Positions 19,328 to 38,510 of a stretch of 64,000 nt of DNA are shown one piece after another. The translations under genes and the position numbers were made by a program. Position 1 is the first letter of the stretch. Each line of letters opens with the position of its first letter. The DNA comes from Alphaproteobacteria bacterium (GTDB lineage Bacteria > Pseudomonadota > Alphaproteobacteria > MPNO01 > UBA830): NCBI GenBank assembly GCA_964291215.2, contig OZ219791.1, positions 3,456,001-3,520,000 on the forward strand. Direction: 5' to 3'. Below the pieces are notes generated by a model that saw only the letters and a program-made list of their open reading frames with translations, did not search any database and had not been told where the DNA came from.

Positions 19328-19459
19328 CCGGGCTTCGGCCGGTCCATCGCCTCACGACGCGCTGAAACCGGCACTGGCCAGGGCCGGGCGGATCGCGTGA
19401 AGAACTTTTTGGGGGCAGGGCGGCGCCACGGGCGGCCACGTGATGCCGGGGCTGCGAAT

Positions 19460-19760: not shown

Positions 19761-19823
19761 AAGCGCGGCTGCCCTTTCGAATATCTGCACCCAGAAGATC
19801 GCGGGCTGCATCGTCTTGCCGCT

Positions 19824-20892: not shown

Positions 20893-21129
20893 GTATCTAC
20901 TCACCCCTTGTTGGGTTCTGATTCATAGTGCTCGTTGATGATGTCTGCGGCTTTTCCGTCGAGGGCGGTCTGGGTGGCGACGAGTGGGTTGTAGCCGAGT
21001 GCGGCCATGGAGGTGAGGTAGCTTGAGCTCCGGCACCATGCTTTTGCGTGGAGCGGAAGCATCCGGACACCTTGACCTTTGCCATCCTGATCTTCTGTTC
21101 TCCGGCATTGTTGGTGAAGCTGACATCGG

Positions 21130-22788: not shown

Positions 22789-23699
22789 GGTCGTCTGTGA
22801 AGCGCAGGTTTTCGTGTTTCACGAGACGTTCGTGCAAGTTGTGCGCGTTTGCGATGCGTTTTCCTTTCGTCGGGATGTCGGGCAGTTCCTTGGCGCCCTG
22901 AGTGAGGGTGGTGCGGTAGCGCCCGGCCTCGTTCAGGGTCTTGGATGCGCTCTTGTTGATCTTGTGGCAGGGAGCAGGCTCTTCATCAGTCGCGCGGTAG
23001 CCTCGACGACGAAGGTCAGTTCGCGCAGCAGGTGGCTGCCGCTGGTGGCTACACTGCCATGTACGAGGCCCAGGACGCCCTTGCAGCACGGGCCGATCTC
23101 TTGCTTGCGGTGCGGGAACTTGCACGTCCCGACGACATGGAGCCACTTTCTGTTGATCCGAAATCATCGACATCGGGCGTTGCAGGAGCACGGCGGCCTC
23201 CTCCCATGACGCATCGTGAAAGCATGGCCGAGGCCTCGGAGAGCTTGATATCGCCTGCACGAGCGCGACGGCACAGGGGCAGCATCCGGGCGACCAGCAG
23301 GGACGAGGGCCTGGATGCCGTACTGCCCGGATGTTGTCGGGGAACCGGCCCCGGGCCTTGCACTTCGGGCATTCCTCGGCGTCGACGCGGCGCGACCTCG
23401 AACACGATGTCGTGCGGCGCTCGACGGGGTCGGCGCCGCAGGCGTCGCAGGCCGCGACCGTCTCCTCGACGATGGTCTTGCGCAGGTTGTCGCCCATCTG
23501 CCGGTTCGGCTTCGGGCCGTTGCTCTCGGCACGCTCTTGTCCGTCTGTGACGGCGGCAGACCGGAGTTCCGGCTCGTGCGTGGTCTTCTCCAGAAGGACG
23601 ACGATGAGGATGTCGAGGACGCGGATCACGGCCTCTTCCGCCACCTTGCCGGCAGCGCCGCGGTCCTGGCCGCTTCGAACTCCTCGCGCGCCGCCCGTC

Positions 23700-23878
23700 G
23701 CCATCACCCGGCCTCGCCGCGAGCATCGCCTGGCGCTCGCCCGGCGGCATCTTCCGGTACTCCGCCTTGCGCTTCATCAGCGCACCGCTTCCCGGATGCG
23801 TTTCCACATACAGATCATGCGGAGCCCCGGAAGCAGCTGGCACAGCCCGCTCGTCGCCTTCGATCCAAAGTAGCCCAC
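23700..23878 (-). pseudogene. Internally deleted Dam-like DNA adenine methyltransferase passenger gene
   Basis: GTG start MGYFGSKATSGLCQ, then HDLYVETHPGSGALMKRK (motif X/I-like) joined directly to a C-terminal-like AEYRKMPPGERQAMLAA. Confidence 0.6.
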
Positions 23879-24038
23879 TGGCGGTCCCCGTCGTTCTCGA
23901 TGACCACCACTAAACGAATCGGCCTGCAGTGTCAAATCTCCACGAAAACCCGTTCGTTGCTCTACCCCGACATCAAGCCGGAACCAGGGGGTGAGCAGTT
24001 ACTTTTGTTCAAGTCAGATTGGTCCAGCTAGTGTCAGG

Positions 24039-24281
24039 TCAATCTGTTTTTTCGATCCGGCAGACGTTGTTCCCGACGGGCACGTCGGCGCCTTCCTCGA
24101 CGAGATGTTCGAGCATCGTCCCGCCGCACGGGGCTTCATATTCGTTGGTAACTTTCTCGGTCTCCATCTCATAGAGGATATCGCCTTCCTTGAATGCCTC
24201 TCCTGGCTGGACACGCCAGGTGACCAGCGTGCCCTCTTCCATATTCATGCCGATCCGCGGCATTTTCAGCGCAACTTTCAC
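24039..24281 (-). CDS. Stand-alone lipoyl-domain protein
   Basis: MPRIGMNMEEGTLVTW, EMETEKV (lipoyl Lys), APCGG; 80 aa with own stop. Confidence 0.88.
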   Translation of the reverse strand: MKVALKMPRIGMNMEEGTLVTWRVQPGEAFKEGDILYEMETEKVTNEYEAPCGGTMLEHLVEEGADVPVGNNVCRIEKTD

Positions 24282-24284
24282 GAT

Positions 24285-25274
24285 TTACGCCTCCGCCCCG
24301 AACGGTTTGCCCAATAGGTCCCGCACGGTGGCCGAGATGCTGCCTTCGTTGGGGAGCAAGGCTTTTTCCAGCGGCGGCGAATATGGTATCGCCACATCGG
24401 GAACGGTAATCCGCTTGATCGGCGCCTTCAGGGCCTCGAAACATTGGTCGGCACAGACGGCGGCCACGTGAGACGCGGCCGAACACAGGTCCCGTGCTTC
24501 ATCGACCACCACCAGCCGGCCGGTGCGGCGAACCGATGAAATGATCGCATCCGTGTCCAACGGGACCATCGTGCGGGGATCGATGAGGTCGACGCCAATA
24601 CCGTCTTCGGCAAGTTGCTTCGCGGCGCGAAGGGCGGGGCGAACCATGGCCCCAATGGCAACCATGGTGACGTCGTTCCCGTCGTGCACTGTGGAGGCCT
24701 TGCCCAGCTCGAAGATCATGTCACCGTCCGGCACTTCGCCGGATTCGCCGCCTCGGCCGGCCGCCTGCAGGAAGACCACCGGGTTGGGATCGTGAATTGA
24801 GGCGCGGAGGAGACCCGCGGCGTCGGCGGGTGTCGCCGGCAGTGCAACCTTGATTCCGCCCAGGTTCATGAACATGGGGTGCATGGCGTCGGAGTGTTGC
24901 GCCGCGGCGGAGCGGCCGCCCCCGAAGACGCTCATATAGACGATCGGCAGGCTGATCTGGCCGGCTGTCATGTAGCGAAGTTTGCTGGCCTGATTGGCGA
25001 TGCTGTCGAAGCCGGTATACATGAAGTTGCCGAACATCATGTGGCAGACGACCTTGTAGCCTGCCGCCGCCGCGCCGACCGCCATGCCGCTCATCACCGT
25101 CTCCGAGATGGGCATGTTCCTGACGCGATGCGCGCCGTGCTTGTCCTTCAGTCCGGCAGTGTCGCCGAAGAGGCTGATTTCCACATCCTCGCCAAACAGG
25201 ACGATCTTCGGATCTCTGGCCATCTCGCTGTCGAGCGTTTCGTTGATGGCCTGGATCATGCGTTTCTTTGCCAT
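24285..25274 (-). CDS. 2-oxoacid/acetoin dehydrogenase E1 beta subunit
   Basis: FGEDV, RVRNMPISE, AAQHS, DLIDPRTMVPLD, SVRRTGRLVVVDE. Confidence 0.92.
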   Translation of the reverse strand: MAKKRMIQAINETLDSEMARDPKIVLFGEDVEISLFGDTAGLKDKHGAHRVRNMPISETVMSGMAVGAAAAGYKVVCHMMFGNFMYTGFDSIANQASKLRYMTAGQISLPIVYMSVFGGGRSAAAQHSDAMHPMFMNLGGIKVALPATPADAAGLLRASIHDPNPVVFLQAAGRGGESGEVPDGDMIFELGKASTVHDGNDVTMVAIGAMVRPALRAAKQLAEDGIGVDLIDPRTMVPLDTDAIISSVRRTGRLVVVDEARDLCSAASHVAAVCADQCFEALKAPIKRITVPDVAIPYSPPLEKALLPNEGSISATVRDLLGKPFGAEA

Positions 25275-25287
25275 GGATTTGCCTCCC

Positions 25288-26280
25288 TTAGGCGAACATG
25301 TAGCCGGTGCCCTGATCGGTAGGGTCCGGATAGGGTGATTCCTCGGCGAAGGCGACTGCTTCGGCCACTTCCGCCGAGATTTCCGCGTTGATACGGTCGA
25401 GGTCCGCTTGGCTGGCCTGACCGGCTTGCAAGATCCGTCTGGCGAATGCGGGGATGGGGTCATCGGCCTTTTTTTGTTCCACTTCTTCCTCTGACCGGTA
25501 GGTGCCGCTGAGGAACGCATGTTCCCCCACCACGTGGCCGCTGTGACGATAGGTGCGGGCTTCGATCAACGTCGGACCTTCTCCGTCCCTGGCCCGCCGG
25601 ATCGCCCTGGCGGCGCATTGCCAAACCTCGATTAGATCGTTGCCGTCGATGGTCTCATGCGCCGCACCATATGGTTTCGCCCGATCGGCGATGCTGCCTG
25701 ACGTGACGGTTGAGTATGGAGAGAACTCCGAGAACCCGTTGTTCTCACACACGAAAATCACGGGGAGTTTCCATAGGGTCGAAACGTTCAGCGCTTCGCA
25801 CAGCACACCTTGGTTGGCCGCGCCGTCTCCAAAGAAGGCGATTCCCACGGCGCCGTTGCCATCGAGCTGAGCTGCCCAAGCAGCGCCCGTGGCGATGGAG
25901 ATTCCGGCACCGACGATGCCGTTCGCACCGATGATGCCCTTCGAGAAGTCCGCGACATGCATGGATCCGCCGTGTCCCCGGCAGATGCCGGTCTTGCGCC
26001 CATACACCTCCGCCACGAGGCGCCTGCTATCGCCCCCTTTGGCGAGAAAATGTCCATGACCGCGGTGGTTGGAGGCAATCCAGTCGTCGTCGCGAAGCTG
26101 GCTGCAGATACCTACGCCCACTGCTTCCTGTCCGATGTAGAGATGGACAGCACCAGGCAAATTCCCGGCCAGGCTGTCTTTTCCGAGCTGTTCCTCGACA
26201 CGGCGAATGCGCAGCATGTCACGGTAAAAGCCAAGCATTTGCTCGTTGGAGAAATTGGTGTCGGCACCGGAACTGGTCAT
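25288..26280 (-). CDS. 2-oxoacid/acetoin dehydrogenase E1 alpha subunit
   Basis: HLYIGQEA, SNHRGHGH, GGSMH, FFGDGAANQG..ENN (ThDP motif), TYRHSGH. Confidence 0.93.
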   Translation of the reverse strand: MTSSGADTNFSNEQMLGFYRDMLRIRRVEEQLGKDSLAGNLPGAVHLYIGQEAVGVGICSQLRDDDWIASNHRGHGHFLAKGGDSRRLVAEVYGRKTGICRGHGGSMHVADFSKGIIGANGIVGAGISIATGAAWAAQLDGNGAVGIAFFGDGAANQGVLCEALNVSTLWKLPVIFVCENNGFSEFSPYSTVTSGSIADRAKPYGAAHETIDGNDLIEVWQCAARAIRRARDGEGPTLIEARTYRHSGHVVGEHAFLSGTYRSEEEVEQKKADDPIPAFARRILQAGQASQADLDRINAEISAEVAEAVAFAEESPYPDPTDQGTGYMFA

Positions 26281-26349
26281 GAAAATCGTCCTCGCTGTTT
26301 CGAATCGGGCCCTGATCAGGACCATCTCCGAGCGAGGGGATAACATACA

Positions 26350-26373
26350 AAAGGTATAGAAGTCTAGACCTTT
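26350..26373. promoter_or_regulatory. Putative GntR/HutC operator, copy 1
   Basis: AAAGGTATAGAAGTCTAGACCTTT, quasi-palindromic, 70 bp upstream of E1 alpha. Confidence 0.75.
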
Positions 26374-26466
26374 AGAATGAGAGGCCGGTGATTTTCGCCT
26401 CACCACCCAGTCATAAGCCGATGAATATTTCTGATTGGAGAGGGGGGCTGGTCCTCGGAAACTGCT

Positions 26467-27189
26467 CTATTCGGTCCCGTCGACGGTGAACTCCATCTCG
26501 AACTGGAGTGCATCACCCGGATAGAGGAGGGTCGAGGAGTAAATCAGCCGATCGTGTTCGTCGTATATCTGGCGGTTTACTCTGAAGATCGGGGAGTTCA
26601 CCTTGATTTTCAGCGCCTGCGAAAGTTCAAAGTCGGCGTAGGAGATTCGGACCGACTGTCGGGCGGACCTGAACTTGACCCCCATATTTTCCAATACGCT
26701 GATAACGATCTCGGAGGCAAACCGTTCCGGCGCTTTTTCATAGAGCGCGCTGTCTACCCGCAGATCGACATGACAGAACGGCTTGCCGTCCAGGGAATGA
26801 ATTCGCTTCATGCGGTGATAAGCGATGCCGTTTTCATCCGGCTGCTCGTCCTGGGAGTCTTCCACAAGGACCGAAACCTCGAGCTGCGAGACCATGGAGT
26901 ACAACTGCGAAAGCTGTGCCTGCATGTTCAAGGTTTGGCGTGTGGGCAGCTTGATCTTCTTGACAAATGTTCCGCGGCCGGCGTGGCGTTCGATGAGACC
27001 CTCGGTCTCCAGGGCATCCATCGCCTGGCGAATGGTCATCCTTGCCACGCCCAGTTTGCTGGTGAGTTCGCTGAGGGGCGGGAGCTGCTCGCCCGGGGCC
27101 AGCGTACCGGACATGATTTGATTGCGAAGAAGTGAGGCCACCTCGGCGTGCAGAGGGACAGCTTCTCGCTTCATCGCAGGGAGATTCAT
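26467..27189 (-). CDS. GntR-family (HutC/UTRA) transcriptional regulator
   Basis: N-terminal wHTH PGEQLP..LGVARMTIRQA..GRGTFV with a UTRA-length C-terminus. Confidence 0.92.
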   Translation of the reverse strand: MNLPAMKREAVPLHAEVASLLRNQIMSGTLAPGEQLPPLSELTSKLGVARMTIRQAMDALETEGLIERHAGRGTFVKKIKLPTRQTLNMQAQLSQLYSMVSQLEVSVLVEDSQDEQPDENGIAYHRMKRIHSLDGKPFCHVDLRVDSALYEKAPERFASEIVISVLENMGVKFRSARQSVRISYADFELSQALKIKVNSPIFRVNRQIYDEHDRLIYSSTLLYPGDALQFEMEFTVDGTE

Positions 27190-27214
27190 ATTGACTCTCG
27201 GATCTTCAGTGACT

Positions 27215-27238
27215 AAAGGTATAAAGGTCTAGCACTTT
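27215..27238. promoter_or_regulatory. Putative GntR/HutC operator, copy 2
   Basis: AAAGGTATAAAGGTCTAGCACTTT in the divergent gntR/transketolase intergenic region. Confidence 0.75.
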
Positions 27239-27308
27239 ATATACACGATTCGAGTTTTGTTTGCAAGGGATTTGCCGATCCCGAACCTTCGGATCGAAGG
27301 GGGTCGAG

Positions 27309-28151
27309 TTGTCACAAGCCGATCATTCAAAGCACAATATCGCCGAACTGGAGAGCATTGCCGCGAAGTTGCGCTTGCGGGTAGTCGAGATGGTTGCGCC
27401 GACGGGCCAGGGTTATGTCCAACAGGGCTTGGGTTCGGCCGATATATTCACCGCCTTGTATTTCGCCGAGGCGCGCGTTGATCCCGAGAATCCGAATTGG
27501 CAAGACCGCGACCGTGTCTTCCTAACCACCGCACATAACACGGCCATCTTCTACGCCGCGTTGGCCGAGCGCGGCTTTTTCGAAACCGAGCGGCTGTCGA
27601 CCTACTGCAAAGACGGATCTCCATTGGAGATTAATGCGTCCGAGCGCATGGGCCGGTTTGTCGAAGCGACCTGCGGCTCACTTGGCCAAGGCCTCTCGGT
27701 CGCCGTCGGCACGGCGCTGGCGGCCAGGCGTCAGGGGCGTCCGACCAGGTGTTATGTGGTTTTGGGGGATGGCGAGATGCAGGAGGGACAGGTTTGGGAA
27801 GCCCTGATGTCCGCCGGCGCGTGGGGCCTCGACAATCTCTGCGTCATTCTCGACTTCAACGAGATGCAGTGCGAGGGACACATGGATAATGTGGTCTCCC
27901 TCCGCCCGGTTGTGGACAAAGTCGAGAGCTTCGGCTTTGCGGTGCACGACATCGACGGCAATGACATGGCCGCGATCCTGAACGCCCTCGATGCGGCCCG
28001 GGAAACCGAGGGCAAACCTGCATTCATCAACGCAAGGACGCTGGTTGGAAAAGGGGTTCCCGCACTGGAAGGCCTCATGGCGCATCAGCTCATGTTCCCG
28101 CCCGAGGTGGCGGAGAACGCCATCGCCGTTCTGAAGGAAAACCGCTTATGA
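27309..28151 (+). CDS. Split transketolase, N-terminal (ThDP-binding) subunit 1
   Basis: WQDRDRVFL, GSLGQGLS, LGDGEMQEGQVWEA..N; TTG start inferred from RBS. Confidence 0.9.
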   Translation: MSQADHSKHNIAELESIAAKLRLRVVEMVAPTGQGYVQQGLGSADIFTALYFAEARVDPENPNWQDRDRVFLTTAHNTAIFYAALAERGFFETERLSTYCKDGSPLEINASERMGRFVEATCGSLGQGLSVAVGTALAARRQGRPTRCYVVLGDGEMQEGQVWEALMSAGAWGLDNLCVILDFNEMQCEGHMDNVVSLRPVVDKVESFGFAVHDIDGNDMAAILNALDAARETEGKPAFINARTLVGKGVPALEGLMAHQLMFPPEVAENAIAVLKENRL

Positions 28152-29140
28152 GCCAGGCTCATAAACTCGACAAATTTGAGGCGGCCGACTTCATCAGCCG
28201 GACCCACAAGCCCATCCCCCGGTTCTACGGTGATGCGCTTCTGGCGGCGGCGAAAAAGGACGAGCGCATCCTCGCCCTGACAGCCGACCTGGCCACGCCG
28301 ACCGAGACCGACATCTTTCGCGACGAGCTGCCGGAACGCTACCACAACGTCGGCATCGCGGAAGCCAACATGATCGGGCTGGCAAGCGGCATGGCGCGGG
28401 CGGGCGAAATTCCGTTCGTGCACACCTTCTGCTCGTTCGCCACGAAGCGATGCTACGACCAGATCACCATGCAGGCCGCCTATCCCAACCTGCCGGTCAA
28501 AATCGTGGGATTCCTGCCCGGGGTGGCGACTCTGCTCGGGGTTTCACATCAGGCCATCGAGGATGTAGCGATCATGCGGGCCATCCCCAACTTGGTGGTC
28601 CTCGATCCGTCCGGTCCGGAATATCACGCTTCTGCCGTTGACGTCGCACTGGCCCATGACGGGCCGGTGTATATGCGTCTCAAACGGCCCGAGATCCCGC
28701 CGGAAAACGATATCGTTCCCAAGGAATTCCGAAAGGGCGAGGGCATTCTGGCCCGGGACGGCGACGATCTCACGATCATCGCAGCTGGTCTGTCCGTTAC
28801 GGAGGCCCTCGCCGCTGCGGACCGGTTGGCCGCTGGCGGAATTGAAGCCTCCGTCATCGATATGGCTTCGATCAAACCGCTGGACGCTGATCTGGTCATC
28901 GACCGCGCCAAGGCAACGGGCGCCATCGTAACCGCGGAAAATCATTCGGTGATTGGTGGCCTGGGGTCCGCCGTGGCAGAAGTCCTGTGCGACGCCGGGA
29001 TCGGGCTGCCGTACAGGCGGGTGGGCTTGGCCGACCTGTTTGCCGAAGGGGGCTCCACCCCGTATCTCATGAAGAAGTACGGATTGGACAGCACGGCGAT
29101 CGTCGAGGCCGCCCGAGACGTTTATGCGAAGAAGGCCTGA
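28148..29140 (+). CDS. Split transketolase, C-terminal subunit 1
   Basis: NVGIAEANMIG, SHQAIED, GPVYMRL, SIKPLD, ENHSVIGGLGSAV. Confidence 0.92.
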   Translation: MSQAHKLDKFEAADFISRTHKPIPRFYGDALLAAAKKDERILALTADLATPTETDIFRDELPERYHNVGIAEANMIGLASGMARAGEIPFVHTFCSFATKRCYDQITMQAAYPNLPVKIVGFLPGVATLLGVSHQAIEDVAIMRAIPNLVVLDPSGPEYHASAVDVALAHDGPVYMRLKRPEIPPENDIVPKEFRKGEGILARDGDDLTIIAAGLSVTEALAAADRLAAGGIEASVIDMASIKPLDADLVIDRAKATGAIVTAENHSVIGGLGSAVAEVLCDAGIGLPYRRVGLADLFAEGGSTPYLMKKYGLDSTAIVEAARDVYAKKA

Positions 29141-29150
29141 GGTCTGGCGA

Positions 29151-29870
29151 ATGGCCGACCGAGCACCACTCGCCATGGTTACGGGTGCCGCCGGAGGGAT
29201 CGGGACGGCCCTCGCACATCGGCTCGCAAATGACGGTTGGCGCCTGCACTTGGTGGATATTGATCAGGGTCGGCTTGACCGGCTCAGCGAAGAGTTGCCG
29301 GGCGGCGCGATCAATAAGGAGAGTCGGCTCGATGACCGGAGGGCCTGCGTCGATGCACTTCCGGACGGCGAAGAGATCGACGCGCTGGTCCACCTGGCGG
29401 GTATATTCGTCGCCGACGACCTCGAGCCGGAGAGTCGGGATATCTACGACCGGACCATGCAGGCCAACGCGACAAACGCATTGGATCTGGCCGGCGCGGC
29501 GCTGCCGCATGTGCGGGATGGCGCCAGCATCGTCTTCGCCTCGTCGATGGGATTTAACCGGGGCGTGCCCGACCGCATCGCGTACTCGATGGCCAAAGGC
29601 GCCATCGTCGGTCTAACCCGCGCACTGTCGCGTCGGGTCGGTGACCGGGGCATCAACGTCAACGCCGTGGCGCCCGGCATCATCGATACGTCGATGCCGC
29701 GCGAACTGATCAGCGAACGCGGGCGGGAGGCGCTCGTGTCTTCAATTCCGCTCGGCCGGTTCGGCCGGCCGGAGGAGGTCGCGGGAGTGATCGCATTTCT
29801 GATCTCCGAGGACGCATCCTACATTACGGGACAGGTCATCAACATCGACGGCGGGATTATCAATGGCTGA
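29151..29870 (+). CDS. Short-chain dehydrogenase/reductase
   Basis: TGAAGGIG, YSMAK, NAVAPG, YITGQVINIDGG. Confidence 0.92.
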   Translation: MADRAPLAMVTGAAGGIGTALAHRLANDGWRLHLVDIDQGRLDRLSEELPGGAINKESRLDDRRACVDALPDGEEIDALVHLAGIFVADDLEPESRDIYDRTMQANATNALDLAGAALPHVRDGASIVFASSMGFNRGVPDRIAYSMAKGAIVGLTRALSRRVGDRGINVNAVAPGIIDTSMPRELISERGREALVSSIPLGRFGRPEEVAGVIAFLISEDASYITGQVINIDGGIING

Positions 29871-29905
29871 TCGGAGCCGACGGAAGATCCGAAGGAGGAC
29901 CGCAT

Positions 29906-30850
29906 ATGCTGCTTGAGGGGGAGACGACTTTCGACGACACCCCGTTCGACGGGATCAGCTTCGATCTTTGCTCGCGCCGCAAGAATGTCGTCATGGTGAG
30001 TGCGGACTTGAGCAAGCACACCCAGATCATTCGAGTAAAGGAAGAGCTGCCGGATCAGCACCTCGATGTCGGGATGGCGGAACAAAACCTGATCTCCGTC
30101 GCGGCCGGCGTCGCCAAGGCGGGTTTTGTCCCGGTGGCGACCACGTTCGCCGTCTACGCGACCCGGCGCGCCTATGATCAGATGGTGATCTGCATGGGGA
30201 CCGGTCCGCACACGAGTATTGTTGTTGGATTTACGCCGGGCATCGCCAATCCGGCGCGGATCCATCACCAGGCAGCGGAGGATTTGGGCATGCTTCGGTC
30301 GATCCCGAACACGACCGTCATCGACCCGATGGATGTCACCGATTTCAAGCAGGCGCTCGACATCGCCGTCGACCTGCCGGGCCTGGTTTATATGCGGGGT
30401 CATCGCGGCAATACCCCGCGGCTCCTCGATCCGCAGAAGTTCAAGTTTGAACTGGGCAAGACCTATCGCCTCCGTTCCGGGAGCGGGACCGGCATCATTG
30501 CCACCGGCCACGCCACCCAATGGGCATTGGAAGCCTCCGAGATACTCAAGGACCGCGGGATCGATCATTCGCTTCTTCATGTCCCGACGATCAAGCCGGT
30601 CGACAAGGCCGGGTTGGCGGACTTCTGCTTTGCCCACAATCGGATCGTCACCATAGAGAACCACCAGATCGTCACCGGTCTCGGGAGCCTTGTCGCCGAG
30701 GTGGTTTCCGATGTCGGCGGCGGGCCTCGCATCACACGCCTTGGGGTGCCCGGCAGTTGGGCGCCCGGCGGCACGTTGCCGTATATCCGGGAACAGCTGG
30801 GACTGGATGCCGTGGGACTTGCGGATCGTATCCGGGAGGCCGGCCAATGA
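29906..30850 (+). CDS. Split transketolase, C-terminal subunit 2
   Basis: DVGMAEQNL, HHQAAED, TIKPVD, ENHQIVTGLGS. Confidence 0.9.
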   Translation: MLLEGETTFDDTPFDGISFDLCSRRKNVVMVSADLSKHTQIIRVKEELPDQHLDVGMAEQNLISVAAGVAKAGFVPVATTFAVYATRRAYDQMVICMGTGPHTSIVVGFTPGIANPARIHHQAAEDLGMLRSIPNTTVIDPMDVTDFKQALDIAVDLPGLVYMRGHRGNTPRLLDPQKFKFELGKTYRLRSGSGTGIIATGHATQWALEASEILKDRGIDHSLLHVPTIKPVDKAGLADFCFAHNRIVTIENHQIVTGLGSLVAEVVSDVGGGPRITRLGVPGSWAPGGTLPYIREQLGLDAVGLADRIREAGQ

Positions 30851-31692
30851 GCACCGGTTCCAACAGCCGCGTCCGGAATTTGGAAATCCTTGCGGCCAAA
30901 ATCAGGCGCAATGCCCTAGACATCTGCATGCAACGCGGCGGTTACGCGGGGCAGGGCGTTGCCTTGGCCGATATTGCGGCGTGCCTCTATTTTGACGAAC
31001 TGCGTCCCGACGGCAGGGGTTGGTTTCATGACCGGTTTGTGCTGTCGAACGGGCACGACGCGATCATGAGCTATGCGGCGTTGGCAGAGCACGGCTCATA
31101 CACGCTCGAGGAGTTGCGGACCTACAACGCCGACGGCACGAAGATCGATCAGAGTCCCATCGAGGGGCAGCGGGGGTTTGAAATCACCGCCGGTTCCCTG
31201 GGGCAGGGGCCGTCACAGGCGGCCGGTATCGCCTGGGCAGAGCGGCAGAGGGGAACCGACAAGCGAATCTATTGCCTGTTCTCGGATGGCGAGCTTCAGG
31301 AGGGCAATGTTTGGGAGGCTGCCATGTTCGCCGCTCACCAAAAGCTCTCCAATCTGGTCTACATCATCGACAACAACGACCTTCAGGCCTCGGGCGCCAC
31401 GACAAACGTGATGAGCGTCGAGCCGGTTCCGGAGAAATTCGAGGCGTTTGGGTGCTTTGCGCGGCGGGTCAATGGAAACAGCGTCACCGAAGTGCTTGAA
31501 GCGTTCGAAGAGGCCAAAAGCGTTGCCGGCAAACCTTATGTCATGGTCTGCGATACCAGGATATTCGCGGGAATCGACTGTCTGCGGGAAGCGCTGCCCA
31601 TGGCGCACTATGTCGCGCAAAACGCCGCGAACTGGGAGGCGGGACTGGCGGAAATCGATGCGAAGATCGCAGATTTGGCCGGCGGCGCGTGA
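30847..31692 (+). CDS. Split transketolase, N-terminal subunit 2
   Basis: DRFVLSNGH, GSLGQG, SDGELQEGNVWEA..DNN; ATGA overlap. Confidence 0.9.
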   Translation: MSTGSNSRVRNLEILAAKIRRNALDICMQRGGYAGQGVALADIAACLYFDELRPDGRGWFHDRFVLSNGHDAIMSYAALAEHGSYTLEELRTYNADGTKIDQSPIEGQRGFEITAGSLGQGPSQAAGIAWAERQRGTDKRIYCLFSDGELQEGNVWEAAMFAAHQKLSNLVYIIDNNDLQASGATTNVMSVEPVPEKFEAFGCFARRVNGNSVTEVLEAFEEAKSVAGKPYVMVCDTRIFAGIDCLREALPMAHYVAQNAANWEAGLAEIDAKIADLAGGA

Positions 31693-31717
31693 TCTTGAAA
31701 GCAGTGAGGATTTAACG

Positions 31718-32509
31718 ATGAGCAGTGAATTGACGGACAATAGGCCGCTGACCGGCAAAGTGGCGGTCGTTACCGGGGCGGGACGCGGAATTGGCCGGTC
31801 AATCGCCCTGGCGCTGACCAGGGCCGGAGCGGATCTGGCCATTTGCTCCCGCACGCCCGCTGAAATTGAAGCGACGCAGGAGGCCATCGTGGACCTCGGC
31901 GTCCGTTGCTTCGTCGGTATCGCCGATCTTTCCGACCCAAAGGCAACGGAATCCGTTTGTGACGAAATTCTCACCGAGTTCGGGCAGGTTCACGTGCTGG
32001 TAAACAATGCCGGTGCGTAGCTTGAGACCAGTCCGGTCGCGGAGTCCGATCCGGATCGGTGGTGGAAGACAGTCGAGGTGAATGTGCGCGGCCCCTATCT
32101 GGTTACCCGGTTTCTCCTTCCGGGTCTCGCGGACGGAGCGAAGATCATCAATCTTTCCTCCGGCGCGGGCCGGAGTGCCGGTAATCGGAACAGTTCGTAC
32201 CATGTCGCCAAGGCCGGGCTGCACATGTTTACCGAGACACTGGCCAACGAACTTTGGCCGCGCCGGATCGATGTAAACAATCTCATTCCGGGTCCGGTTG
32301 CGACAACCAACTTCACCCGCGAAGCACCCGGGACGGCAACACCCGAGGAAATCCTGGAACGTTTGGGCACTGAGACGCCGCCCAACTTTCCGCCGTCGGA
32401 GCGCCTGAAGCATCCGGACGAAATAGGCGAGTTTGCGCTTTACCTGGCAACGCGTCCGGTCGGCGGTCCCACCGGTCAAACATACTCGCTCGCCCGGCGT
32501 CCGCTGTGA
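31718..32509 (+). pseudogene. SDR oxidoreductase with one in-frame TAG
   Basis: TGAGRGIG, NNAGA* (TAG 32018-32020); the same frame continues to YHVAK and NNLIPG. Confidence 0.85.
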
Positions 32510-32552
32510 GCCAGACGTGAAGAAAGCCGTTGACATGCTGCCGTCAATTTAT

Positions 32553-32576
32553 AAAGGTATAGACGTATAGCACTTT
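32553..32576. promoter_or_regulatory. Putative GntR/HutC operator, copy 3
   Basis: AAAGGTATAGACGTATAGCACTTT, just downstream of TTGACA (32530) and upstream of tctC. Confidence 0.78.
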
Positions 32577-32618
32577 GTACAGCCCGATTTATCGAAATTC
32601 CGAAGCAAGGAGGGCTTC

Positions 32619-33605
32619 ATGAAATTCCTCAAATCAGCAGTAACCGCGGTTGCGCTCGCCTTTCTCCTGACAACGGGAATTGGCGGTAAGGCAACTGCTC
32701 AAGACAAATGGCCGACAAAGCCGATCAGCATCGTTGTTTCGTTTAAGGCCGGTGGCAACGCCGATATCGTCGCGCGGATGAACGCCGAAGCGCTCAGCAA
32801 AGAGCTGGGTGTACCGGTCAATGTTCTGAACAAGCCTGGTGGCGCGCACATTCCAGCCACCATGTTTGTCCTGAATGCGCCGGCGGACGGCTATACATTG
32901 TTCAACTGGTCGCCGCCGAGCTTCATGGTCGTGCCGTTGACGCGCAAGGTCCCCTACAAGCCGCTGCGGGACTTCATTCCGCTGTTCGCGGGGATCTCTG
33001 CGTCGAATGCTCTCTATGTGCGCGCCGATTCCCCATACATGACATTCGAAGAGTTCGTTAAGGGCGCCAAGGCCAGGAAACTTACCATCGGCGTCAATAA
33101 CCTGGGTGCGCCGCCCAACCTTTCGGCCGTGCAGATGGCAAAGGAGTTCGGGCTGGAGTTCAAGACGCTTGCCCTGAAGACCGTTCCGGCAACCATGATC
33201 GGCTTGCTCGGCGGGCAGGTCGACGTTGCGGTCGGGCAGGTGGCCTCGATCCACAAATATGGCGAAAAGGTTCGTCCGTTGGTCATCTTGGACAACAACC
33301 GCAAGGCCTTCTATGCCAAGGATCTGCCGGGCGTGCGCACGGTTGGGGAAGTATTCCCGGGCAAGAATGCCGGTACTTGGGTTCACGGCGGCTTGGCGGT
33401 GAAAGCGGGTACGCCCCAGCACATCGTCGACCGGCTGCTCGAGGCCAGCAAGGTGATGGGAAAGCCGGCGTTCATCGCGAAAGTCCCCAAGAGCGTCAGC
33501 TATGACTGGGTTCATGGCACCGAGGCCACCCGCGAGAAAATCCAGGACGGTATCGATCTCTATTCGCCGCTCCTGGCAAGTCTTGGCCTGTTGGTGAAGA
33601 ACTAG
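32619..33605 (+). CDS. tctC: Tripartite tricarboxylate transporter substrate-binding protein
   Basis: Signal peptide, WPTKPISIVV.FKAGGNADIVAR, NKPGG, APADGYTL. Confidence 0.92.
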   Translation: MKFLKSAVTAVALAFLLTTGIGGKATAQDKWPTKPISIVVSFKAGGNADIVARMNAEALSKELGVPVNVLNKPGGAHIPATMFVLNAPADGYTLFNWSPPSFMVVPLTRKVPYKPLRDFIPLFAGISASNALYVRADSPYMTFEEFVKGAKARKLTIGVNNLGAPPNLSAVQMAKEFGLEFKTLALKTVPATMIGLLGGQVDVAVGQVASIHKYGEKVRPLVILDNNRKAFYAKDLPGVRTVGEVFPGKNAGTWVHGGLAVKAGTPQHIVDRLLEASKVMGKPAFIAKVPKSVSYDWVHGTEATREKIQDGIDLYSPLLASLGLLVKN

Positions 33606-33868
33606 AAATAAGTTGGTGTGCCGGGGTGTAGCTCCCGGGCCTCCGGCGCACCAACCTCATTGCGGGACTTTCCCACGCTGTGGTTGATGTTTTGGATGAG
33701 CGCTGAACGGGGCACAAATTTCCGCATTCATGCCAGATTATCTGACTGCGGCGATCCGTGGACGGCCCTGCGGCCAGAAAATCCGGCCGGCTGTGCAACC
33801 TCCCTGCATCAGCAGTCGGCAAGATCGGACGCAGCGTGGGAAAGTCCTGACGTCATGGGGGTGGGGAC

Positions 33869-34330
33869 ATGATTACGCAGCGCGCAGCGAATATAGCGTT
33901 CAATGTCCTGGTAATCGTGGCGGCCGCTTTCTTCGCGCTGGAAGCGGAGACATTTCAAACCTCCGGATTACTCGCCAGTACAGGCTTGCCTTCCAAGTTC
34001 TTTCCGCAGCTCATGTTAGCTTTCATCGGCCTCTGCTCGGTAATTGTCTTCGGAACCTATGTATTCCGGGGCTTTGCGGGCACCGATGAGGGCGCCTCGG
34101 TCTTCGAAGGCGGTGGCGAAGCACGCCGCGGCCTTCTTGTCCTGGTCGTAGCGGTTGCCTGCTACCTCGTTTGGTCCTTCTGGAGCTTCATTCCCATGTT
34201 GATCCTCATCGGCCCGGCTTGCGCGCTTGCCATGGGCGTGAGGTCACCGTGGATGTACGTATCGTTGCTGGTGATGTCGGGCATCGTGTACCTCGTCTTC
34301 ACCCAGCTCCTTCGTGTTCAACTCACATAG
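33869..34330 (+). CDS. tctB: Tripartite tricarboxylate transporter small permease
   Basis: 153-aa TM protein, LPSKFFP, VFTQLLRVQL; lies between tctC and tctA. Confidence 0.85.
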   Translation: MITQRAANIAFNVLVIVAAAFFALEAETFQTSGLLASTGLPSKFFPQLMLAFIGLCSVIVFGTYVFRGFAGTDEGASVFEGGGEARRGLLVLVVAVACYLVWSFWSFIPMLILIGPACALAMGVRSPWMYVSLLVMSGIVYLVFTQLLRVQLT

Positions 34331-34342
34331 CGGGCGCGAACG

Positions 34343-35845
34343 ATGTTCGCGGGATTTGACGTTGTCGCCCAATCCATCGGCCAGCTTGCCGAGCCGATAA
34401 CGCTTGCGCTGCTCGTCGGCGGCATCGTTCTCGGTCTTATCATCGGCGTGTTGCCGGGTCTTGGCCCCCCCATTGCAATTGCCCTGACACTGCCGTTTAC
34501 CTTCCACCTTGAACCGATCGCGGCAATCATTCTTCTTCTTGGGATCTATTCCGCGGCCATCTACGGCGGGTCCATCTCGGCCATAGCGGTAGGCATCCCC
34601 GGAACCGGAGCCGCCATTGCCACCGTCCAGGACGGCAATAAGATGTTCAAGGCCGGCAAAGGCGGCGAGGCCCTCGGCCTCTCGTTGACCGGTTCGATCA
34701 TAGGCGGGCTGTTCAGCGTCATCTGCCTCGCCTTTATCGCGCCAATCCTGGCGGCTGTTGCGATCAAGTTCGGACCGCGGGAGTTTCTGGCCATCAGTGT
34801 GTTCGGCTTGGTCGTTGTCGTTCGGGTGGCGGGCGAAAGCTTGTCCAAAGGACTGCTGGTCGGCGCACTCGGCATCTTCCTGACGACTTGGGGCCTTGAT
34901 GAGCTGAACGGAACTGAACGCTATACGTTCGGCAGCTACCACTTGTACGAAGGCATCCCCCTCGTTCCGTTTCTCGTCGGGGTGTTTGCCGTGTCCGAGG
35001 TTTTGATCGGCGCTGAGCGCGCCCTGCAGAAACTCGACTTCGATCAGACCAGTCTGACCGTGAAACTGCCGGGCTGGGGCAAGCTGATGAAGATGAAGGA
35101 TGTGTTGTTCCGGTCGTCCGCTTTGGGAACCGTCATCGGAATCATCCCCGGCGAAGGGGCCGCGGTGGCCGCGTTCTTTGCTTATTCCGAAGCCAAGCGG
35201 CGGTCCAAGACGCCGGAGAAGTTCGGCACCGGACACGATGAAGCCATCGTTGCCCCCGAAACGGCCAACAACGCCACCGTTGGCGGCGCCCTGGTGCCTA
35301 CACTGACCCTCGGGGTTCCGGGCAGCCCTGCCGCCGCCGTTCTGTTGGGGGCGTTTCTCATCCATGGGCTGGCGCCCGGCCCCAAACTCTTTGCCGAGCG
35401 ACCGGACATCATGTACGCCATCTTCATCGGCCTTTTCATCATCAACGTCTTGATGATGGTGATCGGTCTGATGGCGATCCGTTTTGCGGCCAAGCTGATC
35501 CAGGTGCCGACGACGTTTATCGTGCCCGCGGTTCTGCTTCTGAGCTTCGTCGGAATCTTCAGCGTCTCCAACAGCCTCTTCAACGTCGGCGTGCTGTTGG
35601 GAGCCGGCATTCTCGGTTATGTCGTTCGCAAACTGGGATACTCGATTGCGCCGCTCAGCATTGGATTCGTGCTTGGACCGATCCTGGAAAACTCACTTCG
35701 CCAGTCTCTGGTCATTGCGGACGGAAGCGTCGGTGAATTCTTCAACACACCGATCGGTCTCGGAATTTATGCCGCGCTGGCGCTGACGATCTTCGGCGGG
35801 CCGCTGGCCGGTTGGGCAAACAACAAAATGTTCCAGCGGGATTAG
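34343..35845 (+). CDS. tctA: Tripartite tricarboxylate transporter large permease
   Basis: GVLPGLGP, YGGSISAI, APETANNA, PTLTLGVPGS. Confidence 0.95.
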   Translation: MFAGFDVVAQSIGQLAEPITLALLVGGIVLGLIIGVLPGLGPPIAIALTLPFTFHLEPIAAIILLLGIYSAAIYGGSISAIAVGIPGTGAAIATVQDGNKMFKAGKGGEALGLSLTGSIIGGLFSVICLAFIAPILAAVAIKFGPREFLAISVFGLVVVVRVAGESLSKGLLVGALGIFLTTWGLDELNGTERYTFGSYHLYEGIPLVPFLVGVFAVSEVLIGAERALQKLDFDQTSLTVKLPGWGKLMKMKDVLFRSSALGTVIGIIPGEGAAVAAFFAYSEAKRRSKTPEKFGTGHDEAIVAPETANNATVGGALVPTLTLGVPGSPAAAVLLGAFLIHGLAPGPKLFAERPDIMYAIFIGLFIINVLMMVIGLMAIRFAAKLIQVPTTFIVPAVLLLSFVGIFSVSNSLFNVGVLLGAGILGYVVRKLGYSIAPLSIGFVLGPILENSLRQSLVIADGSVGEFFNTPIGLGIYAALALTIFGGPLAGWANNKMFQRD

Positions 35846-35850
35846 GATGC

Positions 35851-37359
35851 ATGATGAGCGGCAATGAAAATCGGCCCAATATTCTGATCTTTTATCCCGA
35901 TCAGATGAGGGCGGATGCGATGGGGTGCGCGGGCAATCCGATCGTCAAGACCCCTTACATCGACCGGTTGGCCAACGAGGGCGTCCATTTTACGGATGCT
36001 CATGTTTCCTATCCGGTCTGCTGCCCGTTTCGGGCATCTTTGTTCACCGGCAAGTACGCTCAGGGGCACGGCCTGTACCAGAACCACTTCCCGCTCCGCG
36101 CCGATCAGATATTTCTGGCGCCGCTCCTGAAGGACGTGGGGTATCACACCGGGTACGTCGGCAAGTGGCACCTTGAAGGCGGTCCGCGGCCCGGGTTTGT
36201 CCCGCCGGGAGAGAGGCGGATCGGGTTCGATTACTTCATCGGCTTCAACCGCGGACACTTCTATCTCAAGTCCATCTTCTACAGGGATGATGACCGGCCC
36301 TATCACTGCCCGCGTTGGGAGCCTGAGTACCAGACCGAGCATCTGATTGACTTCATCGAGCAATCGGTTGCGAAGGATGACGGCAATCCGTTCTTCGGGT
36401 TTGTCTGTTACGGGCCGCCTCACTTCCCGAACGTCATGCCCGACCACCTGCGGAATCTCTATGGTCCAGGGGAGATCAACCTGCCGCCGAGCATTCTCAG
36501 CCCCGAGGAACACGAAGCGGAGCGACAGTTACGCCTCAAATTCGACCATGCGGGAAACCCGAAATCCGAAGATCACAGCCACGCCGGCGACGGACACAAG
36601 CCGCAGGGCGAACGGGAGACGGAGGAGGAGACCAGAAAATTCATTGCCGAGTACTACGGCATGGTCACCGGCGTCGACCACAATGTGGGCCGTGTCCTCA
36701 ATGCTCTGGACCGGCTGGACATCGTCGAGGACACCATCGTGATCTTCCTCAGCGATCACGGCGACATGCTTGGTCAGCATGGATACTACTGCGGCATCAA
36801 GAAGACGGCGTATCGGGCGGCCATGCAGGTCCCGTTGATTGTTCGTTATCCCCGCAGGTTTCCGGCCGGCAACAAGGTCGACGCGCTGATCGATGTCGCC
36901 GTCGATACAATGCCCACCCTGCTTGAGCTGTGCGGCATTTCCATCCCGAATTCCGTACACGGGACGAGTTATCTGCCTCTCCTGGACGGGACGGCGAAGG
37001 AGATCCGTGATGTAGTGATGTATCAGTCGATGAAGATGCCGGACGGCGACATTTCAGAGTTTACCTGCATGCCCGAGCGCGGAATTCGGACAAAGGACTG
37101 GCTCTACGTGCGTCAGCCCGAGCGCCGCAAGATGCTATTCGATCTCCAAAATGATCCCGACGAGATCAACAACTTGGCGGATGACGGTTCCTTGGGTAAT
37201 CTGATGGATGAGTTCGATGAACGCATTCAGAAACACATGGAGGAGACCGGCGACGACTGGGATCTTTGCTTGGACTTTCCTCCGGAGAACTATCTGACCC
37301 AGGAAGAGGGCAGGAAGTACATGGACGAGCTGGTTCCCCGCGCTATTCGGGTCCCCTGA
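35851..37359 (+). CDS. Formylglycine-dependent (S1) sulfatase, no signal peptide
   Basis: RPNILIFYPDQ, CCPFRASLFTG (CxPxR), GKWHL, PPHFP, SDHGD. Confidence 0.93.
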   Translation: MMSGNENRPNILIFYPDQMRADAMGCAGNPIVKTPYIDRLANEGVHFTDAHVSYPVCCPFRASLFTGKYAQGHGLYQNHFPLRADQIFLAPLLKDVGYHTGYVGKWHLEGGPRPGFVPPGERRIGFDYFIGFNRGHFYLKSIFYRDDDRPYHCPRWEPEYQTEHLIDFIEQSVAKDDGNPFFGFVCYGPPHFPNVMPDHLRNLYGPGEINLPPSILSPEEHEAERQLRLKFDHAGNPKSEDHSHAGDGHKPQGERETEEETRKFIAEYYGMVTGVDHNVGRVLNALDRLDIVEDTIVIFLSDHGDMLGQHGYYCGIKKTAYRAAMQVPLIVRYPRRFPAGNKVDALIDVAVDTMPTLLELCGISIPNSVHGTSYLPLLDGTAKEIRDVVMYQSMKMPDGDISEFTCMPERGIRTKDWLYVRQPERRKMLFDLQNDPDEINNLADDGSLGNLMDEFDERIQKHMEETGDDWDLCLDFPPENYLTQEEGRKYMDELVPRAIRVP

Positions 37360-37376
37360 CGGGGAAATCTGAGTTC

Positions 37377-38510
37377 ATGAGCTTCAACCAGCCCATCAAA
37401 ATAAAAAAAGTCGAAGCACTCCCAATTCGGGCCAGCGGCGGGGTAAGCCCCAACATGGCGCTCGGGTTGATGCCGACCCGCCCGGCGTTGTTGGTCCGGA
37501 TAGACGATGATCAGGGCTGCCGTGGTTGGGGTGAGGTCTGGGCAAACTTCCCGCCCCGCGCAAACCTCCACAAAACGCATCTGATAGAGAGTGTGGTTGC
37601 GCCGCGTCTTGAGGGCGTCACCTTCACCGAGCCTGAGGAAGTTGACGGATTTCTTCGTTCGAAGCTGTCGACGTACTTTCTGCATGTTGGTCAGCTTCAG
37701 GTTTTCGAGCACTTGTTGGCGGGTATCGATATTGCGCTGTGGGACCTTGCGCTGCGCAGCGCCGGCTCAAATTTTGCCGCGCATATGGGATTGAGTGATG
37801 CGAGCGCGGCCTGCTACGCGAGTTCGATCAATCCACCGGATCTTGAGCGGTTGATGCTGCGACATGCCGACTGGGGCCAGTCCCTGTTCAAATTGAAGAT
37901 CGGGTTCGACGACGATGCCGATCGGAGCTTCGTCGAAAAGGCCTCCTCCATTCGGCCGCCGGGCACGAGCATCATGCTGGACAACAACCAGACGTGGGAC
38001 CGGCCGCATGCCGAGAGCATGCTCAAGTCGCTGGAGGAATTCGACCCATTGTTCTCCGAGGAACCTATACCGGCCAATTCGGGATTGGGCGAATGGGAGC
38101 AGCTTGCCAAGGCGACATCGATCCCGTTGGCGGGCGGCGAGAACATATATGGGGTCGACGATTTCCTGCGAATGGCAGGGGCTGGTTTGAAGTATGTCCA
38201 GCCCGATGTCGCCAAATGGGGGGGCGTGACGGGCACTCTGAAGCTGTCCGACCGGCTTCCCGACGGGGTGGCGCTTTGGCCTCACTTCATGGGAACCGCG
38301 GTCGGCCAGATGGCCGCATTGTCCATTGCCGCGGCCGTTGGCGAGTCCGCGATCTGCGAGATGGACGTCAACGAGAACCAGCTTCGGACGGATCTGTGCG
38401 GCGATGTTCTGGGTATCGAAAACGGGCGTGTTGCACTTCCCGAAGGACTTGGATTGGTAATCCCTCCCGTGGCGGAGCGGCTCAAGGAGTATCGGGAGCC
38501 TCTGAACTAA
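37377..38510 (+). CDS. Mandelate racemase/muconate lactonizing enzyme (enolase superfamily)
   Basis: GWGE, GIDIALWDL, FKLKIG (KxK), MLDNNQ, EEP, GGEN, QPDVAKWGG, WPH. Confidence 0.9.
   Translation: MSFNQPIKIKKVEALPIRASGGVSPNMALGLMPTRPALLVRIDDDQGCRGWGEVWANFPPRANLHKTHLIESVVAPRLEGVTFTEPEEVDGFLRSKLSTYFLHVGQLQVFEHLLAGIDIALWDLALRSAGSNFAAHMGLSDASAACYASSINPPDLERLMLRHADWGQSLFKLKIGFDDDADRSFVEKASSIRPPGTSIMLDNNQTWDRPHAESMLKSLEEFDPLFSEEPIPANSGLGEWEQLAKATSIPLAGGENIYGVDDFLRMAGAGLKYVQPDVAKWGGVTGTLKLSDRLPDGVALWPHFMGTAVGQMAALSIAAAVGESAICEMDVNENQLRTDLCGDVLGIENGRVALPEGLGLVIPPVAERLKEYREPLN

Follow-up and report, generated by a model that had tools for sequence, protein, structure and literature searches.

A conserved island with atypical split transketolases and a putative pathway for sulfated sugar acids in sponge-associated bacteria

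What compound does a marine bacterium consume when it groups a carboxylate importer, a sulfatase, an enolase-superfamily enzyme and several thiamine diphosphate (ThDP)-dependent enzymes around one regulator? The question is raised by a 15-gene island of an alphaproteobacterium (assembly GCA_964291215.2, contig OZ219791.1). The window analyzed is a stretch of 64,000 nucleotides (contig positions 3,456,001 to 3,520,000), and the island occupies its positions 24039-38510. A sequence-only reading had proposed that these genes form an undescribed, kinase-free catabolic pathway. Open reading frame (ORF) listing and Pfam searches located every gene that it listed at 24039-38510, and Pfam detected no kinase or isomerase gene within these coordinates. 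None of the island enzymes reaches an NCBIfam equivalog cut-off, hence none is a recognized orthologue of a named enzyme. From the gene content, conservation, operator-like sites, residue changes and module structure described here, we propose a GntR-controlled, non-phosphorylating pathway in which a small carboxylate with a sulfate ester group (a sulfated C4-C6 sugar acid being the likeliest candidate) would be imported, desulfated in the cytoplasm and cut by ThDP-dependent chain cleavage. We lean towards this proposal by slightly more than even confidence.

Gene content, distribution and regulation

The predicted core is the GntR protein, the TctCBA transporter, the sulfatase, the mandelate racemase (MR)-subgroup enzyme and TK1, the first of two split pairs with a transketolase fold. 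The regulator, of the GntR/HutC type with a UTRA domain (PF00392 and PF07702), is encoded on the minus strand at 26467-27189. Divergently from it, on the plus strand, lie the TK1 N-subunit (TK1-N; 27309-28151, start codon approximate; PF00456) and C-subunit (28148-29140). Farther along the plus strand are the TctC periplasmic binding protein (32619-33605; PF03401), TctB (33869-34330; PF07331), TctA (34343-35845; PF01970), a cysteine-type formylglycine sulfatase family protein that is likely cytoplasmic (35854-37359; PF00884) and the MR-subgroup enzyme of the enolase superfamily (37377-38510; PF13378/PF02746). The accessory genes on the plus strand code for SDR1, a short-chain dehydrogenase/reductase (SDR) with an intact YxxxK motif (29151-29870), the C- and N-subunits of the second pair, TK2 (29906-30850 and 30847-31692), and SDR2 (31718-32509), which is interrupted in this strain. 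Those on the minus strand code for a stand-alone lipoyl-domain protein of 80 aa (24039-24281; PF00364) and for the E1 beta (24285-25274; PF02779 and PF02780; under the pyruvate dehydrogenase family cut-offs) and E1 alpha (25288-26280; PF00676; TIGR03182 319 bits against a cut-off of 394) subunits of a 2-oxoacid/acetoin-dehydrogenase-type ThDP enzyme.

A GTDB search with TK1-N confirmed 568 stretches, and the locus counts come from the best 80 of these 568. In 48 of the 80 loci TK1-N identity is at least 65%; in the remaining 32 none of the orthologues counted below was found. The loci span at most 10 kb per side and many lie on short contigs, so that orthologue counts are lower bounds, and the genomes behind them are related, not independent. 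By title, the 48 loci are from metagenome-assembled Rhodospirillales, Paracoccaceae/Rhodobacteraceae, Puniceispirillaceae, other Alpha- and some Gammaproteobacteria, and one Acidimicrobiia. Orthologues were found for GntR in 39 of them, the MR enzyme in 36, TctC in 31, TctA and the sulfatase in 30 each, TK2-N in 20, SDR2 in 17, E1 alpha in 16, the lipoyl protein in 15 and SDR1 in 14. Four further families recur: an aldehyde dehydrogenase (ALDH, 19 loci), a formylglycine-generating enzyme (FGE, 9), a ThDP enzyme of the acetolactate synthase (ALS) fold (7) and a flavin monooxygenase (FMO, 6 loci at 50% identity and 11 under looser clustering).

The genes were expected to be syntenic elsewhere, and they are: GntR, TctA, the sulfatase and the MR enzyme accompany TK1 in 22 of the 48 loci, in shuffled order, and five loci match all 14 scored genes. 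In several loci SDR1, E1 and the lipoyl gene are placed between the TK1 halves. One locus (L058) holds the core, and orthologues of TK2, E1 and ALDH are absent from that whole genome. Where the TK1 locus was without the sulfatase, an orthologue (52-59%) was present elsewhere in four of five genomes. Close homologues of TK1-N occur in 3 of 40 relatives. The island is rare, because the sulfatase was absent from an even sample of 400 class-level genomes; plasmid searches returned no complete cluster, the best sulfatase match being 35%.

Association of the island with sponges is supported, although exclusivity is not implied. In the sponge metagenome runs X11 and X5 all 30 of 30 bins were covered, by contigs mostly 90-99% alike, and among the MR homologues one belongs to Ca. 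Rhodobacter oscarellae, whose host is a sponge. The named species Pacificoceanicola onchidii has an MR homologue at 62%. Contigs of the sponge metatranscriptome run X23 covered 18 of 30 bins, the longest at tctC-tctB; DNA carry-over was uncontrolled in this run, and these contigs may be genomic.

A 24-bp palindrome, AAAGGTATA-N3-GT-N-TAG-N2-CTTT, precedes all three promoters: upstream of E1 alpha (26350-26373), between the divergent gntR and TK1-N (27215-27238) and upstream of tctC (32553-32576), with no strand assigned. With a matrix built from these same three sites, and thus circular for them, the island's own sites scored 40-41 bits and nothing outside the cluster in the 6.15-Mb genome exceeded 19.0 bits. 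The test in other genomes is independent: at a threshold of 20, sites were found in 28 of 48 cluster loci and in none of 37 control loci, and at a threshold of 16 in 34 of 48 and 1 of 37, respectively. Most of them lie immediately upstream of TK1-N, tctC, gntR or E1 alpha, with the consensus AAAGgTnTAgAcgTcTAnAcCTTT. The claim that a shared operator ties the genes into one conserved regulon is borne out by these counts. A GntR-UTRA protein together with palindromic sites at promoters is the arrangement of HutC/GntR regulons, and we infer that the GntR protein binds these sites. A promoter scan was uninformative (2 sites, 4.4 expected).

Two atypical split pairs and their exchangeable modules

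Motif anchors were used to place the transketolase sites, numbered as in E. coli; the full-length transketolase of this genome has the expected residue at all of them but Gly154. Between TK1 and TK2, identity is only 40% for the N- and 36% for the C-subunits, and both pairs have the transketolase fold with the ThDP/metal-binding residues His66, Asp155, Asn185 and Glu411. They share fold and split architecture with 6YAK/6YAJ. His66, Asp155, Glu411 and Arg520 are retained in every group of this comparison, and the His261 region and His473 also in TK1 and TK2. At the donor site both pairs depart from the controls: His26, a donor-binding residue of transketolase, is Tyr in both, and His100 is Asn in TK1 and Ser in TK2. 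Of Asp469 and the phosphate motif R358-S385-H461-R520, Arg520 alone is retained. TK1 has Pro for Arg358, Pro for Ser385, Leu for His461 and Leu for Asp469, and TK2 has Thr for His461 and Ala for Asp469. These changes are nearly constant among orthologues. TK1 orthologues have Tyr26 in 45 of 46 sequences, Asn100 in 46 of 46, and Pro358, Pro385, Leu461 and Leu469 in 40 of 40; TK2 orthologues have Tyr26, Ser100, Thr461 and Ala469 in 20 of 20. Distant split transketolases used as controls kept His26 and His100 (11 of 11) and Arg358, His461 and Asp469 (10 of 10). An excerpt of PMC7661550 lists His66, His100, Gly114 and His473 as donor-binding residues and R358, S385, D469 and R520 as specificity sites, and gives His100 as the residue that differs between transketolase and 1-deoxy-D-xylulose 5-phosphate (DXP) synthase.

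In two quick, unrooted trees (subsamples of 46 and 36 rows, support by the Shimodaira-Hasegawa-like approximate likelihood ratio test, SH-aLRT, only) a branch with SH-aLRT 99 separated the Tyr26 enzymes from the His26 enzymes. On the Tyr26 side are TK1, TK2 and SDR-linked pairs of Rhizobium, Pantoea, Burkholderia, Paraburkholderia and Skermanella. Outside the island, Tyr26 pairs adjoin SDRs, hydroxyacid dehydrogenases or class III aminotransferases, that is, enzyme types able to make ketones. TK1 and TK2 are likely ThDP lyases or decarboxylases rather than transketolases, because they have lost donor and acceptor residues, stand apart from AptAB, do not have the SqwGH motif and, in the case of TK2, are exchanged for an ALS-fold enzyme. 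The two pairs had been likened to AptAB or SqwGH. This likeness was not upheld: both are atypical, with key residues lost, and related to neither. As possible AptAB relatives they were set aside, with 30-36% identity and a separate group in the tree.

More tentatively, and with somewhat less than even confidence, we suggest that Tyr26 split 'transketolases' may form a class of ThDP lyases or decarboxylases that is widespread and misannotated and cuts ketones made by its neighbours, and that in marine, sponge-associated bacteria they may drive a sulfated-sugar-acid pathway of interchangeable cleavage modules. The ketones would come from a neighbouring dehydratase, SDR or aminotransferase, and the exchangeable modules would be of the transketolase or ALS fold and of the E1-lipoyl or Baeyer-Villiger-type oxygenase kind. 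In Reyranella, Methylocapsa and Variovorax (L060-L068, L098) a TK1-like pair stands with a class III aminotransferase, an amidase, a penicillin acylase or dimethylformamidase-like gene and a peptide ATP-binding cassette transporter, possibly an amide/amine catabolic pathway.

The accessory genes occur as modules. SDR1 travels with the E1-lipoyl genes (E1 alpha in 11 of 14 SDR1 loci) and SDR2 with TK2 (TK2-N in 15 of 17 SDR2 loci). TK2-N (20 loci) and the ALS-fold enzyme (7 loci) never share a locus and occupy the same gene position, downstream of the sulfatase or transporter; the ALS-fold orthologue was absent in five of five TK2 genomes checked (best 38%). E1 and FMO likewise never share a locus, and the E1 alpha orthologue was absent in three of three FMO genomes checked. 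The best PDB match of the FMO is 8acs, which is presumably a type II FMO with Baeyer-Villiger activity. In other genomes the ALDH gene adjoins the MR gene, usually between TK1 and MR, and its best model is alpha-ketoglutaric semialdehyde dehydrogenase, under the cut-off. Minimal loci (e.g. L047, L023) are without an SDR or ALDH orthologue, which leaves the MR enzyme as their only candidate ketone-maker. The 15 genes had been read as one obligatory linear pathway; this does not hold, since the E1/lipoyl/SDR1 and TK2/SDR2 genes are accessory and swappable.

The E1 module has the parts of a 2-oxoacid/acetoin dehydrogenase, with E1 alpha, E1 beta and a lipoyl domain whose lysine motif ETEKV is kept throughout 15 aligned sequences. 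Its E1 alpha is 40-42% identical to the genome's other E1 alphas. No E2 catalytic domain or E3 was found in the cluster, and the genome's two PF00198 domains lie elsewhere. In L116 (1047-16191) and L066 (1-4200) a TK2-like pair occurs with SDRs, a beta-keto acid cleavage enzyme, a tripartite ATP-independent periplasmic (TRAP) transporter, an epimerase and a GntR-UTRA regulator; L066 carries TK2-C at its edge, in this other, non-island setting.

Import, desulfation and the proposed route

The MR enzyme has K172-x-K174, D202, E229, E255, D277 and H303, all invariant in 30 sequences. The KxK motif, three metal carboxylates and a His-Asp dyad are the pattern of the MR subgroup, and the enolase-superfamily gene can be placed there by its full residue set. 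No orthology to a characterized acid-sugar dehydratase was detected, all NCBIfam scores being far under the cut-offs. A tripartite tricarboxylate transporter (TTT) is present with TctA, TctB, TctC and the TctC domain-1 motif, here SFKAGGNAD (FxAGGxxD kept); an excerpt of PMC5812351 describes P-F-x-A-G-G-x-x-D as the domain-1 motif of the carboxylate pincer. The idea that TctC had lost its pincer was dropped, as the domain-1 motif is kept and the second loop alone differs from solved homologues. A single-sequence AlphaFold model of TctC was unusable (pLDDT 35), and the ESM Atlas returned only generic names for TctC and the sulfatase. The sulfatase starts with MSGNENRPNILIF, without a signal-peptide-like stretch, and its CxPxR signature (CCPFR) and GKWH, DQ and SDHG motifs are invariant across 29 sequences. 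CxPxR is the signature of formylglycine (S1) sulfatases according to an excerpt of PMC10972148. These features agree with the earlier prediction of TTT import and a cytoplasmic CxPxR sulfatase. The best PDB match of the sulfatase, 2qzu, is itself putative. An FGE-family gene is present in 9 of 48 sister loci, and the cluster-linked FGEs show a Cys pair. This genome, 99% complete, has seven sulfatase-family loci and no recognizable FGE or anaerobic sulfatase-maturating enzyme (anSME).

The substrate is, as a best guess from the genes present, a sulfated sugar acid. Paralogues of the sulfatase (51-58%) lie in other TTT clusters with tetronate and acid-sugar-dehydratase-like enzymes. In one such cluster (L110), an L-threonate dehydrogenase passes its cut-off and a second sulfatase that of choline sulfatase, and oxo-tetronate-isomerase-like and PdxA-like genes are also present; in another (L114) the paralogue is near PdxA-like, dihydrodipicolinate-synthase-like and dehydratase-like genes. 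A sugar-acid substrate gains indirect support from these threonate/tetronate, PdxA-like and acid-sugar-dehydratase-like neighbours. The two TTT clusters (L110:556-11000 and L114:2773-17318), with a sulfatase paralogue, PdxA-like dehydrogenases, tetronate enzymes and a second sulfatase, have no kinase among their annotated genes, and their PdxA-like protein might act on a 4-O-sulfated tetronate, sulfate replacing phosphate.

In the proposed route, TctCBA would import the sulfate ester and the sulfatase would free sulfate in the cytoplasm. The MR-subgroup enzyme would then abstract the alpha-proton, probably dehydrating the acid to a 2-oxo-3-deoxy acid, or alternatively epimerising it. TK1 would add ThDP to the ketone and split off CO2 or a smaller carbonyl fragment, a step that probably needs no sugar-phosphate acceptor. 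The ALDH found in other genomes would oxidize the aldehyde. Each accessory module would combine an SDR that makes a ketone with an enzyme that cleaves it: SDR2 with TK2, for which the ALS-fold enzyme may substitute in some genomes, and SDR1 with E1 alpha/beta and the lipoyl protein for an oxidative cleavage that probably borrows E2/E3 encoded elsewhere and appears to alternate with the FMO. These modules would process further products or substrate variants. If true, the scheme would mean that marine carbon and sulfur cycling includes a so far undescribed route for small sulfate esters, and would suggest an unrecognized organosulfur currency in the sponge holobiont, a metabolite for whose use several unrelated sponge-associated bacteria acquired genes. 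A recognizable group annotated 'transketolase' would perform other chemistry, and the Tyr-for-His26 signature would be a simple means of re-annotation and a lead to new candidate biocatalysts that use ThDP. Two direct handles on the substrate are TctC and the UTRA domain.

Several observations weigh against this scheme. For talarate/galactarate dehydratase the MR enzyme reaches only 90 bits where 500 are required, and the structure nearest to it, 3ddm, carries the label putative; as stated above, no enzyme of the island reaches an equivalog cut-off. An ALDH orthologue is absent from this genome (best 34%). Neither an FGE with the cluster-type Cys pair (the PF03781 match is without it) nor an anSME (no TIGR03942 match) was found in the genome, which leaves maturation of the sulfatase here unexplained. 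Both exclusions are imperfect genome-wide: two of four ALS-fold genomes hold a TK2-like pair elsewhere, in another setting, and a 46-47% FMO homologue occurs elsewhere in two of five E1-bearing genomes. Finally, AptB is also without Arg358, His461, Asp469 and Arg520, so that losses in the C-subunit cannot by themselves rule out ketol transfer or phosphorylated substrates, and the non-transketolase argument rests on His26/His100 and on the swap between TK2 and the ALS-fold enzyme. The evidence for non-phosphorylated intermediates, proposed earlier, is accordingly only suggestive: the cluster has no kinase, but the phosphate residues are also lost in AptB, whose pathway has one.

The same AptB comparison, with its Asp469 to Leu change shared with TK1 and its lost phosphate residues, favours a scheme in which TK1 and TK2 are true C2-transferring transketolases that use an unusual, possibly branched donor and, like AptAB or SqwGH, hand the C2 unit on to glyceraldehyde 3-phosphate, in an otherwise unchanged route. 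The fold and split architecture of 6YAK/6YAJ and the retained His66, His261 region, His473 and Arg520 also fit. We regard C2 transfer as unlikely, though worth keeping in mind: AptA keeps His26/His100 and groups with canonical split transketolases (quick tree, long branch), the residue that distinguishes transketolase from DXP synthase is the lost His100, and an ALS-fold enzyme replaces TK2. In addition, SqwGH retains both arginines of its RAFDR motif, as given in an excerpt of PMC11659671, where TK1 has Pro at Arg358. It is quite unlikely that the substrate is instead an aryl or alkyl sulfate of a 2-hydroxy acid or diol, a mandelate-like or phenylglycol-like host metabolite that the MR enzyme would racemise, the SDRs oxidize and the ThDP enzymes decarboxylate as a 2-oxo acid, with ALDH oxidizing the aldehyde. 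Such a route could draw on the kept MR-type KxK and His/Asp residues, on the ALDH, ALS-fold enzyme and FMO of sister clusters, on the TK1-like enzymes that in other bacteria accompany amidases and class III aminotransferases, and on transketolase mutations at R358, S385 and D469 that favour aromatic aldehydes (excerpt of PMC7661550). However, no ring-cleavage, CoA-ligase or dioxygenase family is among the recurrent annotated families, the sulfatase paralogues accompany sugar-acid genes, sugars are the substrates of the nearest solved sulfatases for which a substrate is named, and the minimal loci are without any dehydrogenase.

The hydrolase might also act on a phosphate or phosphonate ester, or be inactive here, the island decaying or serving mainly to scavenge sulfur or phosphorus rather than for carbon catabolism. 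PehA and phosphonate monoester hydrolases are among the matches of the sulfatase, this genome has no recognizable maturase, and the SDR2 nonsense mutation and the repeat in the tct operon could be signs of decay. With FGE-family genes in 9 of 48 loci, invariant sulfatase motifs in 29 sequences, carbon-cleaving enzymes in the core and five other loci that match all 14 scored genes, we consider this very unlikely. That unrelated catabolic genes gathered by chance on a mobile island has a probability next to nil. Low GC, integrase and transposase remnants downstream and rarity (0 of 400 class-level genomes) would be compatible with it, but it is already contradicted by the same genes staying together in different orders, in several families and with a common operator.

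Of the two SDRs predicted, both are present and SDR2 is a pseudogene in this strain. Its in-frame TAG at 32018-32020 is present in run X1, an exact match to the window and possibly the source of this DNA, and is a sense codon in X2, X3 and X4; X2 and X3 differ from the window by 4 and 6 in 1101 bases. All 16 orthologues in the alignment carry Tyr (8), Gln (6) or Glu (2) at this position. Recoding of the amber codon was ruled out by these sense codons and by the ARAGORN list (48 genes, two unassigned), which contains no CUA-anticodon tRNA: the TAG is a recent strain-level nonsense mutation. Between tctC and tctB lies a dispersed, MITE-like (miniature inverted-repeat transposable element) repeat of ~190-220 bp (33638-33859, no strand assigned), with 89 BLAST pieces across the genome, itself included; it is missing from related strains, where the X11, X5 and X23 contigs leave out 197-220 bases. 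The GC content of the island is 0.598 (genome mean 0.641; 2 of 425 genome windows equally low), and downstream lie fragments of an integrase and of an ISAzo13 transposase, which fits an acquired island.

Elsewhere in the window, 18473-23900 is a degraded mobile region with an AbrB/MazE-type antitoxin (18473-18937), a DUF7002 gene that falls into two ORFs (19824-20495) and, judged by eye, fragments similar to a group II intron reverse transcriptase and to a transposase, which have no Pfam match at 1e-5. At 5633-10876 lies a further TctABC system, accompanied by a citrate-synthase-like gene and one for a family III CoA transferase. A 715-aa minus-strand ORF without a Pfam match (40280-42427) separates the ISAzo13 fragment from a second catabolic cluster (42845-51658), which codes for an M20 amidohydrolase, an arylmalonate-decarboxylase family protein, three amidohydrolases, an ornithine cyclodeaminase family protein, an SDR and a DUF3830 protein.

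Comparison with known systems

The island shares with non-phosphorylative acid-sugar pathways an MR-subgroup dehydratase, SDRs, ALDH and the absence of a kinase. In the Weimberg/aldarate, L-fucose and 3,6-anhydrogalactose routes, cleavage is by aldolases or hydrolases, or a second dehydratase takes part; in the island it would be by ThDP proteins, with import and desulfation built in. Its E1 genes resemble Haloferax oadhAB2, which also pairs E1 alpha/E1 beta with a lipoyl carrier, reportedly a lone lipoyl domain. The substrate of oadhAB2 is listed as unidentified in a table of PMC8305020. Compared with 2-oxoacid/acetoin dehydrogenases, the island E1 has no E2 core or E3 in the cluster and is tied to an SDR and sulfatase regulon.

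The D-apiose pathway, which in an excerpt of PMC13001218 includes the kinase AplK, has like the island a split transketolase-fold pair beside SDRs, a transporter and a regulator. Our AptAB reference was taken from the E. coli SE15 locus tags named in that excerpt. AptB has the Asp469 to Leu change of TK1 and lacks Arg358, His461 and Arg520, and a branched donor for TK1 is possible on this comparison. AptA, however, keeps His26/His100, and AptAB, at 30-36% identity, falls outside the TK1/TK2 group with canonical split transketolases. The apiose pathway has no sulfatase, TTT or enolase, all three of which are present in the island, and AplK had no tblastn match in the 80 loci or in this genome. 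The sulfo-transketolase pathway (SqvD, SqwGH, SqwI) is akin to our proposal in using a split transketolase on a sulfur-bearing, non-phosphorylated sugar. According to excerpts of PMC12890257 and PMC11659671, it acts on a C-sulfonate in anaerobes, requires isomerases, and leaves the sulfur on an excreted product, whereas the island has a sulfatase in its core and no isomerase family. Compared by its published motif (PMC11659671, in excerpt), SqwGH has RAFDR where TK1 has P-P-F-L-R.

No paper on this gene set was found in a literature search that covered few subscription journals, in line with the earlier statement that no such pathway is described; the excerpt of PMC11366302 does not describe this cluster. 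A likeness to TK2 is seen in compact operons of named soil and plant bacteria (L096, L097, L100, L101, L102; plasmid/chromid records), on replicons of Rhizobium, Pantoea, Burkholderia, Paraburkholderia and Skermanella, with the order LysR, SDR, a major facilitator superfamily or TRAP transporter, and the N and C halves of a 'transketolase'. The compared regions contain no sulfatase or enolase, and the pair is annotated 'transketolase' alone, with no characterization seen and no dedicated literature search made. These pairs have Tyr for His26 and Ser for His100, have lost His461 and Asp469, stand beside an SDR and group with TK2 (SH-aLRT 99). The parts of the island all come from known families; what appears to be undescribed is the way they are combined, together with the modular swaps and the group of Tyr26 enzymes.

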